Sequence record: MT682711.1 | Strand: one strand, 5' to 3' | Source: Escherichia phage vB_EcoM_FB | DNA: 64,000 nucleotides | Part shown: positions 7,769 through 56,264 of the stretch, piece after piece | How the letters are laid out: the number at the start of each line of letters is the position of its first letter | Numbering within the stretch: position 1 is the first letter of the stretch | Made by a program: the position numbers and the translations under genes | The notes under the pieces: generated by a model | The model's input: only the letters and a program-made list of their open reading frames with translations | The model's database searches: none | Told to the model about the DNA's origin: nothing

Positions 7769-8013
7769 TGGAAGATTTAATCGAAGCTATTAAATCAAAC
7801 GACCTCGTAGCAGTTCGTAAAGCAGCAGCCCCGCTTATCGAATCTCGAGTAACCGCTTTGATTGAAGCCCGTAAAGCAGAAATTGCTCGCTCCGTTATGA
7901 TTGAAGGCGAAGAAGCTGACGAAGATGACGAAGACGACGAAAAATCCGATAAAGCAGATAAGAAAGACAAAAAAGAATCTGACGATGCGGATGATGACGA
8001 GGACGACGAATAA
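7768..8013 (+). CDS. 67: prohead core protein gp67
   Basis: 81 aa with highly acidic C-terminus; ATG overlaps gene 20 stop; T4 order 20-67-68-21. Confidence 0.8.
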
Positions 8014-8441
8014 TGTTCCTTATCCCTGATGATTACGAATTAACTCTAGAAAGCGTAGAGGCCAAAATTCCAGAAGCACAGGGACGTTTTGCTGCTCTTT
8101 CTGAAGCGCTCGAGAAAAGCGATATAAATAATCTTGTAGAGAACATGATTGCTGAAGGCGATATCGAATGTGCTATCGCTCTTGGTTCTTTAAATGAATC
8201 AATGGCTCTTAACGAATTTATAGTTAAACACGTTTCCTCTAAAGGTGAGCTTACTCGTACTAAAGATATTAAAACCCGTCAACGTAATGCGTTCCAAACG
8301 ACAGGTTTATCTAAAGCAAAACGCCGTCAGATTGCTCGTAAAGCATCTAAAACCAAACGTGCTAATCCGTCTACTCAAGTACGTGCCGAACGTAAGCGTA
8401 AGAAAGCCCGTTCTAAACGTAAAGCTTTTGGACTCAACTAA
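8013..8441 (+). CDS. 68: prohead core protein gp68
   Basis: 142 aa with basic C-terminus; overlapping start/stop with flanking genes; T4 synteny. Confidence 0.8.
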
Positions 8442-9943: not shown

Positions 9944-11503
9944 ATGAAAAAGAATGCATTAGTTCAAAAATGGTCCGCTCTGCTGGAAAACGAAGCTCTT
10001 CCTGAAATCGTTGGTGCTTCTAAACAAGCTATCATCGCTAAAATTTTCGAAAACCAGGAACAAGACATCCTGACTGCCCCGGAATACCGTGATGAAAAAA
10101 TCTCTGAAGCATTTGGTTCTTTCCTGACCGAAGCTGAAATTGGTGGTGACCACGGTTATGATGCTACCAATATCGCAGCTGGCCAGACTTCTGGTGCTGT
10201 AACTCAGATTGGGCCGGCAGTAATGGGTATGGTTCGTCGTGCTATTCCTCATCTGATTGCTTTTGATATTTGTGGTGTTCAGCCTCTGAATAACCCTACC
10301 GGCCAGGTATTTGCCCTGCGCGCAGTTTATGGTAAAGACCCTGTCGCTGCTGGCGCTAAAGAAGCTTTCCACCCGATGTATTCTCCGGACTCTATGTTCT
10401 CTGGTCAGGGTGCTGCTGAATCTTTCGAAGCACTGGCTGCAAGCAAAGTTCTGGAAGTTGGTAAAATTTATTCTCACTTCTTCGAAGCTACCGGTGCTGC
10501 ACACTTCCAGGCTGTTGAAGCCGTAACCGTTGATGCTGCTGCTACCGATGCCGCTAAACTGGATGCTGCTGTTACCGCTTTGATTGAAGCTGGTAAGTTG
10601 GCTGAATTGGCTGAAGGTATGGCTACTTCTATCGCTGAACTTCAGGAAGGCTTTAACGGTTCTACCGATAACCCGTGGAACGAAATGGGCTTCCGCATCG
10701 ACAAACAAGTTATCGAAGCTAAATCCCGTCAGCTGAAAGCAAGCTACTCTATCGAACTGGCACAGGACCTTCGTGCAGTACACGGTATGGATGCAGATGC
10801 TGAACTGTCCGGTATCCTTGCTACCGAAATTATGCTCGAAATCAACCGTGAAGTTATCGATTGGATTAACTACTCTGCACAGGTTGGTAAATCTGGTATG
10901 ACCAACACCGTTGGCGCTAAAGCTGGTGTGTTTGACTTCCAGGACCCGATTGATATCCGTGGTGCTCGTTGGGCCGGTGAGAGCTTTAAAGCCCTTCTGT
11001 TCCAGATTGATAAAGAAGCAGCCGAAATCGCTCGTCAGACCGGTCGTGGTGCTGGTAACTTCATCATCGCTTCCCGTAACGTAGTTAACGTACTGGCTGC
11101 AGTTGATACTTCTGTAAGTTATGCAGCTCAAGGTCTGGGTCAAGGTTTCAACGTTGACACAACCAAAGCAGTATTTGCCGGTGTTCTTGGTGGTAAATAT
11201 CGCGTTTACATCGACCAGTATGCACGTTCCGATTACTTCACCATCGGTTATAAAGGCGCTAACGAAATGGACGCAGGTATCTACTATGCTCCGTACGTTG
11301 CACTGACCCCGCTGCGTGGTTCCGATCCGAAGAACTTCCAACCGGTAATGGGCTTCAAAACTCGTTACGGTATCGGTATCAACCCGTTCGCTGACCCTGC
11401 TGCTCAGGCTCCTACCAAACGTATCCAGAATGGTATGCCTGACATCGTTAACAGCCTTGGTCTGAATGGTTACTTCCGTCGCGTATATGTTAAAGGTATC
11501 TAA
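9944..11503 (+). CDS. 23: major capsid protein gp23
   Basis: 519 aa; T4 gp23 is about 521 aa; position after gene 22. Confidence 0.95.
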   Translation: MKKNALVQKWSALLENEALPEIVGASKQAIIAKIFENQEQDILTAPEYRDEKISEAFGSFLTEAEIGGDHGYDATNIAAGQTSGAVTQIGPAVMGMVRRAIPHLIAFDICGVQPLNNPTGQVFALRAVYGKDPVAAGAKEAFHPMYSPDSMFSGQGAAESFEALAASKVLEVGKIYSHFFEATGAAHFQAVEAVTVDAAATDAAKLDAAVTALIEAGKLAELAEGMATSIAELQEGFNGSTDNPWNEMGFRIDKQVIEAKSRQLKASYSIELAQDLRAVHGMDADAELSGILATEIMLEINREVIDWINYSAQVGKSGMTNTVGAKAGVFDFQDPIDIRGARWAGESFKALLFQIDKEAAEIARQTGRGAGNFIIASRNVVNVLAAVDTSVSYAAQGLGQGFNVDTTKAVFAGVLGGKYRVYIDQYARSDYFTIGYKGANEMDAGIYYAPYVALTPLRGSDPKNFQPVMGFKTRYGIGINPFADPAAQAPTKRIQNGMPDIVNSLGLNGYFRRVYVKGI

Positions 11504-11519
11504 GATATAACCTTATTAT

Positions 11520-11545
11520 GGGAGACTTCGGTCTCCCATTCTTGT
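11520..11545 (+). terminator. rho-independent terminator after gene 23
   Basis: GGGAGAC-TTCG-GTCTCCC hairpin followed by ATTCTTGTTTCTG. Confidence 0.7.
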
Positions 11546-11552
11546 TTCTGTA

Positions 11553-11819
11553 TTATGCAATCTTAACTCGGCGGTTGATGATATCACGGAAGTCAATACG
11601 ATTTTCTTGGATTTTCAGCCAGTTACCAGATTTGTCTTTGGTATGGGTAGAGTATTCACCGTTCCACCAGAAGTCGGTAGCATAAGCCATGGCTTCGTAT
11701 TTCTTAACTAAGGCATTCACTGCATTACCATTAGGATTGTTACCGAATTTTTCTACCAGAGCTTTGATGTCTTTATCAAGAGCGGAAAGAGTAGTACGAA
11801 TAAAGTTTAACTTGTTCAT
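11553..11819 (-). CDS. hypothetical small early protein (88 aa) in the slot T4 uses for segD
   Basis: ATG at 11819 preceded by GAGGAG SD and an early promoter; track ORF extends 5 codons further to 11834; no recognizable motif. Confidence 0.5.
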   Translation of the reverse strand: MNKLNFIRTTLSALDKDIKALVEKFGNNPNGNAVNALVKKYEAMAYATDFWWNGEYSTHTKDKSGNWLKIQENRIDFRDIINRRVKIA

Positions 11820-11848
11820 TTTTAATCTCCTCATGTTTTGATAGGTCT

Positions 11849-11878
11849 ATAGTAACATGTGAGAATCTTGCTGTAAAC
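11849..11878 (-). promoter_or_regulatory. T4-type early promoter (GTTTAC -35, TACTAT -10), cassette copy
   Basis: Minus strand GTTTAC, 18-nt spacer, TACTAT; followed by conserved leader ...CATGAGGAGATTAAAAATG. Confidence 0.6.
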
Positions 11879-11884
11879 AACTTT

Positions 11885-11892
11885 TATAAATA
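11885..11892 (+). promoter_or_regulatory. T4-type late promoter TATAAATA (gene 24)
   Basis: Exact TATAAATA 29 nt upstream of gene 24 ATG. Confidence 0.65.
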
Positions 11893-11920
11893 AACATATA
11901 CCCTCAATAAGGAAAGCGCA

Positions 11921-13204
11921 ATGGCAAAGATTAACGAATTACTGCGCGAGTCAACAACTACTTCCAGCAACTCATTGGGTCGCCCTAATCTTGTTGCTTT
12001 GACCCGTGCTACAACCAAATTGATTTACCGTGATATTATCGCCGAACAACGTACTAGCCAGCCTATTGCTGCACTGTATGGTGTCAAATATCTTACCCCT
12101 GATAATGAATTTAGTTTCCAGACAGGTGCCTCTTATGGTGGTGAAGTTGGTTCTAAAGACCGTGAAACTATCCCAGAACTCACAGATAAGGCCCAGGCGA
12201 TTGCTCAGGGTGAATATTTCAAGTACCAGAATGTGGTTTATAAGGCTCTTAAAGCAAGCCCACTCGCGTCCACTAGCGCCACAGAATTGGCTGATGCTCT
12301 TCAAGAAGGTTTAGTGTCATTAACATGTCGTCTGGTTCCTGATGCTGCCCATACCACTAAATTTGAAGCGAGTGATGTAGAAATCTCTGATGCTGTATTC
12401 CAGGTTAATAAATGGAATGCTCCGGTTAAGACCCGTAAATTGAAGACGGCTTTGACTGTAGAATTAGCGCAGGATATGGAATCAAATGGCTTTGACGCGC
12501 CGGCGTTCTTAGAAGACCTCTTGGCTACAGTAATGGCAGATGAAATTAATAAAGACGTTCTGCAATCTCTAATAACCGTATCCAAACGTTATAAAGTTAC
12601 TGGTGTATCTGATAACGGCATCATCGATTTGTCTTATGACAGTGCTCCTGAATCTGCACGTAAACTTTATGAACTCGTTTGTGAGATGAATTCTGAAATC
12701 CAGAAAACTACTTCTTATTCTGGCACGTTTGTTGTGGCTTCAAGTCGTGTGGCTGCAATGCTTGCAGGTTCTGGCTGGTTAAAACATAAACCCGAAGATA
12801 ATAATTGGCTTCCGGAAACTGCATACGGATATTTGTTGAATGGTCTGCCTCTGTTTTGTGACGTTAACAGTCCATTAGATTATGTTACCGTTGGTGTTAA
12901 AGAGAATTACGGCGGTAATGAAGTTGTCGGTTCTATTTTCTACGCTCCCTATACCGAAGGCTTAGATTTAGATGACCAAGAACACGTCGGTGCTTATAAG
13001 GTTATTGTTGACCCGGATTCATTACAACCTTCTATTTCTCTGATGGTTCGTTATGCACTATCAGCTAACCCGTACACCGTGGCTAAAGACGATAAAGAAG
13101 CTCGTGTTATCGATGCAACCAATATGGATTTAATGGCTGGACAGAGCAATATGTCTTATCTGGTTGGCGTTAAACTTCCGGCAATTATTTACGAGGCTGA
13201 TTAA
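11921..13204 (+). CDS. 24: capsid vertex protein gp24
   Basis: 427 aa; N-terminus MAKINELLRESTTT... matches my recollection of T4 gp24; gp23-like fold family. Confidence 0.9.
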   Translation: MAKINELLRESTTTSSNSLGRPNLVALTRATTKLIYRDIIAEQRTSQPIAALYGVKYLTPDNEFSFQTGASYGGEVGSKDRETIPELTDKAQAIAQGEYFKYQNVVYKALKASPLASTSATELADALQEGLVSLTCRLVPDAAHTTKFEASDVEISDAVFQVNKWNAPVKTRKLKTALTVELAQDMESNGFDAPAFLEDLLATVMADEINKDVLQSLITVSKRYKVTGVSDNGIIDLSYDSAPESARKLYELVCEMNSEIQKTTSYSGTFVVASSRVAAMLAGSGWLKHKPEDNNWLPETAYGYLLNGLPLFCDVNSPLDYVTVGVKENYGGNEVVGSIFYAPYTEGLDLDDQEHVGAYKVIVDPDSLQPSISLMVRYALSANPYTVAKDDKEARVIDATNMDLMAGQSNMSYLVGVKLPAIIYEAD

Positions 13205-14484
13205 TGTCTAAGATTGTAGACCTAATTAAAGAATCCACATTGACGGCTGCCAGCTCGGTTGGCCGTCCTGCTCTTCTTTCATACACCCAAGCAACTAATA
13301 AACGAATCTTTAAAGCCCTAGTTGCTGAACAAAAAACAAATCAACCGGTTGCTGCTCTGTATGGGGTACGTGTACTGAATCCTGACGACAAAATGACTTA
13401 TCTTGGTGGAGCAACATTTGCGGGCCAGATTGGTATGACGGAACGTGAAAATATTCCAGAATTTACTGATTCATCTACAGCTTATGCGGTCGGTGATATG
13501 TTCCAGTTTGAAAGCGTAGTGTTTAAAGTTCTAGAAGCATCTCCTTTCGCCGGAACCACAGAAACCAACCTCAGCGAAGTTATTTCTGAAGCAGTGGCAG
13601 CCGGCCATATCCGTATGGTGTCGGATGCTGCTATTACTTCTAAATTTGAACAAGGCCATCCTGAAATTGCTGAAACCGGATTCCGTATCGACAAATGGCA
13701 ATCTGAAGTTAAATCACGTAAACTGAAAACTTCATTGACAGTCGAATTAGCCCAAGACCTAGAATCTAACGGGTTTAATGCTCCTAATTTCGTTGAAAAT
13801 CTGCTAGGCATTCAAATGGCAGAAGAAATTAATAAGGATGTATTACAGTCATTAATTACCGTGAGCTCTCGTTTTAAAGTCCAGGGTGTTTCTGAAAAGG
13901 GTGTATTAGACCTTACCAACCCTCGCTACGATAATGCCCAGGACCGTGCTCGCACATTATATTATTATATGTGTGAGATGAACTCTGCCGTCCAACGACA
14001 GACTTCTTTTGCCGGGACTTATGCAGTAGCTAGTTCTCGTTGTGCTGCTATTCTCGCCGCCTCTGGTTGGGTTGAGAAAAAGGAAGACCAGGACGAATTG
14101 GCTTATGGTATATTAAAGAATGGCCTACCACTTTATGCTGATATGAATAGTCTATGTGATTATGTTATTGTTGGTGTAAATGCCCAGATGGGTGAAGGAC
14201 AGACGGTCGCATCTTTATATTATGCGCCTTATACGGAAGGTTTGAATGTGGTTGACGAAGAAGGTGATACTTCAGTTGGTGAATTTAAGGTTATTGTTGA
14301 CCCGGAAAGCTTACAACCTACAGTAGCATTGCTTGCTCGTTATGCATTGACTGCAAACCCTTATACCGTCGCTAAGGACGATAAAGAAGCCCGCATTATT
14401 GATGGTTCTGATATGGACAAAATGGCTAATCAAAGTCAATTGAGTTCTTATCTCGGCGTAAAATTACCGCCTTTAGAAAAATAA
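13204..14484 (+). CDS. second gp24-like capsid vertex protein (divergent tandem paralog)
   Basis: 426 aa; shared blocks with the first copy (SRKLKT.LTVELAQD.ESNGF.AP.F.E.LL, EINKDVLQSLITVS, ANPYTVAKDDKEAR); start overlaps stop of first copy. Confidence 0.85.
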   Translation: MSKIVDLIKESTLTAASSVGRPALLSYTQATNKRIFKALVAEQKTNQPVAALYGVRVLNPDDKMTYLGGATFAGQIGMTERENIPEFTDSSTAYAVGDMFQFESVVFKVLEASPFAGTTETNLSEVISEAVAAGHIRMVSDAAITSKFEQGHPEIAETGFRIDKWQSEVKSRKLKTSLTVELAQDLESNGFNAPNFVENLLGIQMAEEINKDVLQSLITVSSRFKVQGVSEKGVLDLTNPRYDNAQDRARTLYYYMCEMNSAVQRQTSFAGTYAVASSRCAAILAASGWVEKKEDQDELAYGILKNGLPLYADMNSLCDYVIVGVNAQMGEGQTVASLYYAPYTEGLNVVDEEGDTSVGEFKVIVDPESLQPTVALLARYALTANPYTVAKDDKEARIIDGSDMDKMANQSQLSSYLGVKLPPLEK

Positions 14485-17508: not shown

Positions 17509-17516
17509 TATTTATA
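17509..17516 (-). promoter_or_regulatory. T4-type late promoter TATAAATA on minus strand (inh)
   Basis: Reverse complement is exact TATAAATA, about 35 nt upstream of inh ATG. Confidence 0.55.
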
Positions 17517-28267: not shown

Positions 28268-28297
28268 ATAGTAACACCATCCTTGGCGTTTGTAAAC
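28268..28297 (-). promoter_or_regulatory. T4-type early promoter, cassette copy, immediately after the Alt-A stop
   Basis: Minus strand GTTTAC, 18-nt spacer, TACTAT, then leader ...ACATGAGGAGAACATTATG. Confidence 0.55.
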
Positions 28298-42604: not shown

Positions 42605-42634
42605 ATTATACTCTGCTCCCAAGAGTTTGTAAAC
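42605..42634 (-). promoter_or_regulatory. T4-type early promoter (GTTTAC -35, TATAAT -10)
   Basis: Minus strand GTTTAC, 18-nt spacer, TATAAT. Confidence 0.55.
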
Positions 42635-51336: not shown

Positions 51337-51366
51337 ATAGTATCACTACCATAGCCTGGTGTAAAC
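51337..51366 (-). promoter_or_regulatory. early promoter cassette copy (GTTTAC -35, TACTAT -10)
   Basis: Minus strand GTTTAC...GATACTAT; inverted repeat GGCTAT/ATAGCC around the -10. Confidence 0.55.
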
Positions 51367-51626: not shown

Positions 51627-51655
51627 ATAGTATCATGTTTAAAGGCATTGTAAAC
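51627..51655 (-). promoter_or_regulatory. early promoter cassette copy (GTTTAC -35, TGATACTAT -10)
   Basis: Minus strand GTTTACAATGCCTTTAAACATGATACTAT. Confidence 0.6.
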
Positions 51656-52320: not shown

Positions 52321-52349
52321 ATAGTATCATGTTTAAAGGGGTTGTAAAC
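52321..52349 (-). promoter_or_regulatory. early promoter cassette copy (GTTTAC -35, TGATACTAT -10)
   Basis: Minus strand GTTTACAACCCCTTTAAACATGATACTAT, directly downstream of the gene 32 terminator. Confidence 0.6.
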
Positions 52350-56235: not shown

Positions 56236-56264
56236 ATTATATCATGGGTTTTAAGGAAGTAAAC
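56236..56264 (-). promoter_or_regulatory. T4-type early promoter (GTTTAC -35, TGATATAAT extended -10) for rnh
   Basis: Minus strand GTTTACTTCCTTAAAACCCATGATATAAT. Confidence 0.6.

Follow-up and report, generated by a model that had tools for sequence, protein, structure and literature searches.

Several small T4 early proteins, such as MotB, Ndd, Arn and Acb2/Vs.4, act in host takeover or counter-defence. SegD-like GIY-YIG homing endonucleases comprise a catalytic domain and a DNA-binding domain and are about 220 aa long, and the internal proteins of T4 are expressed late or both early and late and carry an N-terminal capsid-targeting sequence ending in an L/I-x-E gp21 site. MotB is described in PMC6070864 as a DNA-binding protein, and it is basic, as is the protein analysed in this study. 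The moron concept (Hendrix/Juhala) is summarised in PMC2839356, and the same paper (Arbiol et al. 2010) described the PeSL cassettes of RB49 and phi1 and their T-even analogues at IP loci. The consensus of T4-type early promoters was described in PMC1524935, and the supplementary files of that study (Nolan et al. 2006) list two predicted promoters, Pe:109605 (early) and Pl:109573 (late), at the RB69 site homologous to the one analysed here. For T4 segD, a 2010 review found no segD-specific promoter identifiable and expected vanishingly low expression (PMC2988022); in time-resolved omics of T4, segD RNA was classed as early and SegD protein was detected and classed as middle (PMC9697503, supplements).

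A stretch of 64,000 nucleotides from Escherichia phage vB_EcoM_FB (sequence record MT682711.1), hereafter the window, was used for the analysis. An earlier note on this DNA had drawn attention to a small minus-strand gene between the capsid genes 23 and 24. This gene is already known as an annotated hypothetical protein grouped in PHROG 6003, and its RB69 promoter was predicted in 2006.

Gene order and signals at the locus

The gene order in the window was 21, 22 and 23 on the plus strand, an 88-aa ORF on the minus strand, and 24a and 24b again on the plus strand. The ORF was found at 11553-11819, within the interval 11520-11920 of the earlier note. Because a segment of 1.4 kb around it is 99.9% identical to QL01 and vB_EcoM-E33, 99.7% to Bp7 and 95% to JS98, the window can be assigned to Dhakavirus as a JS98/Bp7/QL01-like T-even phage; the gene 23 region (99.9% DNA identity to QL01) is annotated as major head protein in QL01. 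The capsid vertex gene is duplicated in tandem (24a, 427 aa; 24b, 426 aa), is likewise annotated in JS98, IME08 and VR7, and occurs as a single copy in Mosigvirus and T4. Coordinates of the features are listed in Table 1.

Table 1. Features of the gene 23-24 locus and of related loci. Positions refer to the window unless another record or an extracted segment is named.
Feature	Positions	Strand	Basis
Gene 23, major capsid protein, upstream late neighbour	9944-11503	+	ORF list; QL01 and JS98 annotation
G+C-rich hairpin ATGGGAGAC-TTCG-GTCTCCCAT, 9-bp	11518-11539	both strands	terminator scan; RNA fold -16.4 kcal/mol
Whole cassette (early promoter, leader and ORF), about 330 nt	about 11550-11884, approximate boundaries	minus	alignment to RB27 and JD18
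88-aa ORF including stop codon; protein start MNKLNFIRTTLSALDKDIK	11553-11819	minus	ORF list; sequence; homologues
Shine-Dalgarno GAGGAG, 7 nt 5' of ATG 11819	11832-11827	minus	sequence; leader recurs at other early promoters
Extended -10 TGtTACTAT of early promoter	11849-11857 (TACTAT 11854-11849, TG 11857-11856)	minus	promoter scan
-35 GTTTAC of T4-type early promoter	11873-11878	minus	motif count; conservation; RB69 counterpart Pe:109605
Late promoter TATAAATA of gene 24a	11885-11892	+	motif positions; conserved in all aligned phages; RB69 Pl:109573
Gene 24a, capsid vertex protein, downstream late neighbour	11921-13204	+	ORF list; JS98 annotation
Gene 24b	13204-14484	+	ORF list; JS98 annotation
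ORF and segD in IME08	HM071924 segment 3563-4519		
Siphovirus-like family member (L007)	extracted segment 6001-6255		
rV5-like family members (L013, L015)	extracted segments 8001-8267 (L013) and 8001-8264 (L015)		

The ORF begins with ATG at 11819 and ends with a TAA stop at 11555-11553. An alternative in-frame ATG upstream, at 11834, would make a protein of 93 aa and is unlikely to be used because it falls inside the Shine-Dalgarno sequence. The elements of a T4-type early promoter (-35, spacer, TG-extended -10 and A-rich upstream sequence) were all present at the ORF, with a spacer of 18 nt between GTTTAC and TACTAT and ATAAAAG upstream; a generic promoter scan read the same site as TTTACA-17-TACTAT with TG. 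The transcript is predicted to start near 11842. The early -35 and the late box TATAAATA stand back to back, 6 nt apart, with the start of gene 24a lying 29 nt beyond the late box, and the complement of TATAAATA falls in the A/T-rich region upstream of the early -35.

The hairpin downstream of gene 23 has a T-rich tail on the plus strand only, and for this reason it is read as the intrinsic terminator of gene 23. On the minus strand it would form the 3' stem-loop of the ORF transcript, where termination may be leaky since this side has no U tract. The gene had been placed by the earlier note antisense inside the late capsid operon. The antisense orientation holds; since gene 23 has its own hairpin terminator and gene 24a its own late promoter, the gene lies between two late transcription units and not in one operon.

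Early promoter and recurrent leader module

A search of the window for GTTTAC-N16-19-TAYWAT yielded seven matches, every one of them on the minus strand. The number expected from shuffles is 0.34, and a count of seven was reached by none of 100 shuffles. Five of the seven sites have in common a promoter-plus-leader module of the form GTTTACA ... TG(A/T)TACTATAGACCTATCAA ... TGAGGA(G/A) ... AAAATG. The claims that the ORF has its own GTTTAC/TACTAT early promoter and a conserved GAGGAG leader are both supported by this analysis. The -35 GTTTAC is invariant across Dhakavirus, Gaprivervirus and Mosigvirus and reads ATTTAC in T4. The late box and the hairpin are also conserved across the three genera; the hairpin is kept in JS98, PhAPEC2, T4, RB27 and JD18, and the stem sequence of VR7 differs yet pairs. 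From the motif matches and the analogy with T4 segD, expression of the 88-aa gene is predicted to be early in infection.

Near-identical copies of the module, GTTTACA...TGATACTATAGACCTATCAACTA...TGAGGA...AAAATG, precede several minus-strand genes (28268-28297, 51337-51366, 51627-51655 and 52321-52349), and two more divergent copies occur at 42605-42634 and 56236-56264. The repeated modules are possible substrates for modular shuffling of the PeSL kind.

Coding evidence and predicted protein

Pairwise dN/dS of the ORF was 0.10 against JS98 and against IME08 and 0.08-0.11 against VR7; in the VR7 comparison dS was saturated and 64% of the residues were kept. Full-length homologues of 84-93 aa aligned without large gaps down to about 27-40% identity in a family alignment of 13 sequences, in which M1, K3, F6, L11, L14, N30, G31, N32, N35, A45 and Q71 were invariant. 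AlphaFold2 run on this alignment gave a mean pLDDT of 89.5 and a fold consisting of a helix (3-25), a second helix (31-47), a beta-hairpin (52-61, 67-71) and a third helix (77-87). An independent BFVD model of the homologue from Acinetobacter phage ABPH49 superposed on the ORF model with a TM of 0.77. The PHROG 6003 profile matched the protein in hmmscan with E = 6.8e-50, residues 1-88 aligning to profile positions 1-88 of 90. The protein has a pI of 9.6, and the basic charge is common to the family (pI 9.5-9.8, net charge +4 to +5.5).

On the strength of a dN/dS of about 0.1, the full-length homologues, the pLDDT of 89.5 and the superposition with the ABPH49 model, the ORF is judged to be a real protein-coding gene. 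Strong purifying selection together with retention at one site in three genera shows that this is not a throwaway gene. The role of the NGN..N motif and Q71 may be wholly structural, or these residues may belong to an active site not yet recognised as such.

Homologues and their distribution

By homology, the ORF is the gene annotated as JS98 orf173, as VR7ORF190c and as RB69ORF188c/189c, and it is assigned to PHROG 6003. These are the same gene, with nothing structurally different between them, and are annotated as hypothetical. The family was detected by tblastn in 237 phage records. Identity was at least 90% in 86 records, with Dhakavirus (for example JS98 orf173) among the matches listed, and 60-80% in 32 records, with Gaprivervirus (for example VR7ORF190c) among the matches listed. 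Among the other 119 records, all below 60%, were Mosigvirus genomes (about 36%) and a single record from Vequintavirinae (ABPH49, 39%). At the protein level, identity to the ORF was 100% in Bp7, LHE83 and LQ5 and 97.7% in JS98; it was about 64-67% in VR7-like phages and fell to about 33-36% in Mosigvirus. The antisense position between genes 23 and 24 is constant in Dhakavirus, Gaprivervirus and Mosigvirus. Divergence is fast, with 33% identity between Dhakavirus and Mosigvirus, much faster than that of the capsid neighbours.

In the RB69 reference (NC_004928, segment 5292-5532) the homologue is annotated as two pieces, ORF189c (29 aa) and ORF188c (41 aa). Compared with PhAPEC2, whose 89-aa gene is intact, RB69 has two frameshifts that account for the split; the RB69 copy is a genuine pseudogene, or else it reflects an error in the sequencing of 2003. 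Disrupted alleles were also found in phage 310Ecol104PP (P0007) and phage mogra (P0014). Such alleles, present in some of the deposited genomes, suggest a gene that may be dispensable; they could also be sequencing errors.

Family members were also present outside the T-even phages. In rV5-like phages of 141 kb, the homologue lies within long arrays of co-oriented ORFs of 34-190 aa without Pfam matches, and in a siphovirus-like contig of 32 kb its place is behind the tail gene gpJ, at the boundary with the replication module. The presence of members in these genomes indicates that the gene has moved horizontally between coliphages of unrelated types. An exhaustive HMMER profile search of 1.84 billion representative proteins retrieved only about eight clusters of the family, of 84-90 aa or truncated; word-index searches of 5.8 billion proteins found nothing beyond the family itself, and a scan of IMG/VR found only T-even isolates that were already sequenced. 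The family is narrow.

Four further profile matches are probably spurious. Three long proteins (P0021-P0023; 996, 1347 and 2170 aa, with 6-9 matched stretches over the three) are most likely repeat artefacts: P0021 (996 aa) is built up of SNSNGNQITAIAD-like units repeated many times, which match the region of the NGN motif, and P0022 (six matched stretches) and P0023 (nine) were judged by analogy with it. The fourth, P0024 (160 aa, from a metagenome), has 30 residues nearly identical to residues 33-62 of the ORF and is otherwise unrelated, and is most likely an assembly chimera.

Empty sites and comparison with described cassettes

Comparison of the spacer between genes 23 and 24 revealed phages in which the cassette is absent. 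In RB27 (Tequatrovirus) and JD18 (Jiaodavirus) the spacer measures 83 nt, against 417 nt in the window, and is made up solely of the gene 23 stop, the hairpin, TATAAATA and the start of gene 24. An early promoter is lacking, and the hairpin of gene 23 is immediately followed by the late promoter of gene 24. In the alignment, the additional sequence of the window, about 330 nt, is placed precisely between hairpin and late box. When the end of gene 23 and the start of gene 24 were used as queries in a distant-mode search, the spacing proved to be much shorter in most of the Tequatrovirus, Jiaodavirus and Moonvirus genomes sampled. The cassette has a G+C content of 0.36-0.38, compared with 0.48 for gene 23.

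The cassette can be described as moron-like, the classical moron being an ORFan that brings its own promoter and lies in reverse orientation within a block of late genes. It resembles morons in being a solitary ORFan with its own promoter, in running against the direction of the late genes, in its precise presence or absence and in its lower G+C content. It differs from them in having no clear terminator of its own, as it uses the resident gene 23 hairpin that empty-site phages also have, in belonging to a lytic phage, in being a gene of predicted early expression and not of lysogenic conversion, and in its stable position at one site in three genera. It recalls PeSL cassettes in a near-identical promoter-plus-leader sequence repeated before several small genes, which together with a stem-loop brackets a putatively non-essential ORFan. 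Unlike in PeSL cassettes, the promoter is of the T4 early type and not of the RB49 sigma-70-like type, the stem-loop lies outside the repeat, and the site is in a conserved block of head genes, syntenic in three genera, and not in a hyperplastic region.

Relation to segD

The earlier note had also stated that the gene occupies the slot of T4 segD. The slot is the same: in T4 (NC_000866) segD alone is found between genes 23 and 24, in the same orientation and with a homologous hairpin. The two are not mutually exclusive, as IME08-type Dhakaviruses (IME08, IME341, UP19 and LF82-33) carry both, with segD inserted between the ORF, whose stop lies 3 nt ahead of it, and the gene 23 hairpin. Thus, three states exist: ORF only, ORF with segD, and segD only (T4). 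The T4 unit differs from that of the window in that it encodes a GIY-YIG endonuclease and that the 88-aa ORF was lost or never present.

Alignment of the T4 stretch from the late box to the segD start with the promoter and leader of the ORF (window 11817-11892) gave 53 identical positions out of 77 and a score of 26; the scores of shuffled sequences averaged -3 and did not exceed 10. The putative T4 segD promoter resembles sigma-70 and T4 early promoters and reads ATTTAC-18-TATTAT, with TG upstream, and a GGAG lies before the second ATG (NC_000866 segment 6222-6300, minus strand). For the start of T4 segD, the alignment favours this second ATG (MKYLIYQ...) over the annotated MFKMKYL...; the second ATG also matches the start of IME08 SegD, which is 56% identical to T4 SegD. 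Given that T4 segD and the ORF have homologous promoters and leaders and that the IME08-type phages have the ORF followed by segD, segD was probably a later passenger in a pre-existing early transcription unit and would have replaced the ORF in T4. On grounds of homology, the T4 omics data on segD are the best available support that the stronger promoter of the window fires early.

Searches for function

The statement of the earlier note that the protein has no endonuclease or other recognizable motif agrees with our results, as Pfam, NCBIfam and PADLOC gave no significant match to it. DUF5380 matched four of the 13 family members with E values of at least 0.075, far below the DUF5380 cut-off, and a sequence profile search of the PDB retrieved only designed helical proteins, with E values of at least 0.33. 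Across these searches there was no sequence or fold relative of established function, and comparison with known anti-defence proteins and PADLOC components revealed no sequence or fold likeness to a characterised member. In the literature searched, RB69ORF188c, VR7ORF190c, JS98 orf173 and PHROG 6003 are not mentioned as such, the sole match to ORF188c being to ORFs of other phages.

A DNA mimic was ruled out by the basic character of the protein. A GIY-YIG homing endonuclease was rejected at a length of 88 aa and with no Pfam match above threshold, SegD being a separate gene of 223 aa in IME08.

Mosigvirus AV110 (OR352940) has a homologue, WPK33856.1 (segment 2501-2770). A bioRxiv preprint of September 2026 reportedly deals with an 'Elongasome-Modulating Peptide' (Emp) of AV110 that is made early and inhibits growth. 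Emp may be a member of the family described here, in which case the family would have a function in Mre-dependent peptidoglycan synthesis; an indirect search suggests, weakly, that the preprint does not treat the surroundings of the capsid genes and that Emp is a different peptide.

Proposed explanation and its alternatives

The reading that we favour is that the locus is a moron-like early accessory cassette whose product is a non-enzymatic, stoichiometric binding protein that is probably not essential; as a whole, this statement is rather probable. Its parts differ in strength. That the cassette is a real accessory unit driven by an early promoter is highly probable, and that the 88-aa protein is a stoichiometric binder is evenly poised. 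In the first minutes of infection, the host sigma-70 RNA polymerase would initiate at the T4-type early promoter (11878-11873, 11857-11849) and produce a transcript with a leader of about 23 nt and a strong GAGGAG site, followed by the 88-codon ORF and extending up to or through the gene 23 hairpin. The product would be a soluble, basic protein of about 10 kDa with a helix-helix-beta-hairpin-helix fold and no catalytic motif, which may bind an acidic partner of host or phage origin, be it a nucleic acid or a protein, and serve as an accessory takeover or counter-defence factor. Late in infection the gene would be shut off, with the early promoter class off, the late promoter of gene 24 back to back with it and late transcription opposing it. 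We infer the binding mode of action, the dispensability and any host target of the protein; the conserved basic charge is weak evidence for the binding mode.

Four other explanations were weighed against this cassette reading. The ORF might have no function of its own and be kept as a part of the segD unit (promoter, leader, translational coupling) or as hitch-hiking flank. This would suit the IME08-type arrangement, in which segD follows 3 nt after the ORF stop without its own promoter, and the use of a homologous promoter and leader by T4 segD; it is improbable in view of the lack of segD in most carriers (the window, JS98, Bp7, QL01, VR7 and Mosigvirus), the dN/dS of about 0.1 and the lack of a nuclease Pfam match in the called neighbours of the rV5-like and siphovirus-like homologues. 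T4 kept the promoter and lost the ORF, which means that segD does not need the ORF. The same T4 arrangement, with promoter kept and ORF gone, can be counted for the idea that transcription itself is the function and the peptide incidental, capsid expression being timed or tuned through promoter occlusion or antisense RNA by an early promoter convergent with gene 23. The distance of 6 nt between the early -35 and the late TATAAATA also agrees with that idea, as does a hairpin which, without a U tract on the minus strand, makes read-through antisense to gene 23 possible. Purifying selection on the protein sequence, a confidently predicted fold, family members in unrelated genomic contexts and the absence of the promoter altogether from RB27 and JD18 make this explanation slightly less probable again than that of a segD part.

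A role in head assembly, as a chaperone, a gp24 regulator or an injected internal protein, is suggested by the position between genes 23 and 24 in three genera. The N-terminus MNKLNFIR bears a faint resemblance to the capsid-targeting sequence of T4 internal proteins, and LVE at residues 21-23 would fit the L-x-E cleavage site of gp21. L-x-E is not conserved (VR7 has LVN), and none is found family-wide in the first 10-25 residues. The ORF has an early promoter only, the TATAAATA sites on its own (minus) strand being at 17509, 21713, 38016 and 49062, none of them nearby. RB27 and JD18 are confirmed empty, most sampled Tequatrovirus, Jiaodavirus and Moonvirus genomes have no room for the gene, and the rV5-like homologues lie among small ORFs and not among head genes. 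Head assembly in general is very unlikely on this evidence, and the internal-protein form of it was ruled out for want of a late promoter and a conserved cleavage motif. Chance ORFs are common in the window, one of them a 460-aa ORF antisense to gene 23, so the 88-aa ORF might be non-coding; this is barely credible against a dN/dS of about 0.1, 64% of residues kept at saturated dS in the VR7 comparison, a full-length PHROG 6003 match, a Shine-Dalgarno sequence, a promoter and a pLDDT of 89.5.

Within the accessory-cassette reading, the protein resembles the small early T4 proteins of host takeover and counter-defence in its size, its early promoter, its probable dispensability and its restriction to a lineage. 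An accessory or anti-host function, as proposed in the earlier note, is an inference that fits the genomic context of the ORF. A more specific version is tentative: a host-takeover or counter-defence effector with an orphan fold, basic and expressed early, that would neutralise a factor of Enterobacteriaceae, with N30-G31-N32..N35/Q71 as putative binding site and with the cassette exchanged among T-even, rV5-like and siphovirus-like coliphages. A role in counter-defence specifically is more doubtful still.

T-even phages have hundreds of small early ORFans, and as another of these the gene adds little by itself. It is a clean monocistronic candidate for screens of accessory genes, for which RB27 and JD18, without the gene, provide a natural comparison. 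For T4 segD, comparison with the ORF also points to a start codon and an early promoter that are both plausible. Finally, the series of ORF only, ORF with segD and segD only may illustrate the steps from the arrival of a homing endonuclease gene in an existing transcription unit to its takeover of that unit.
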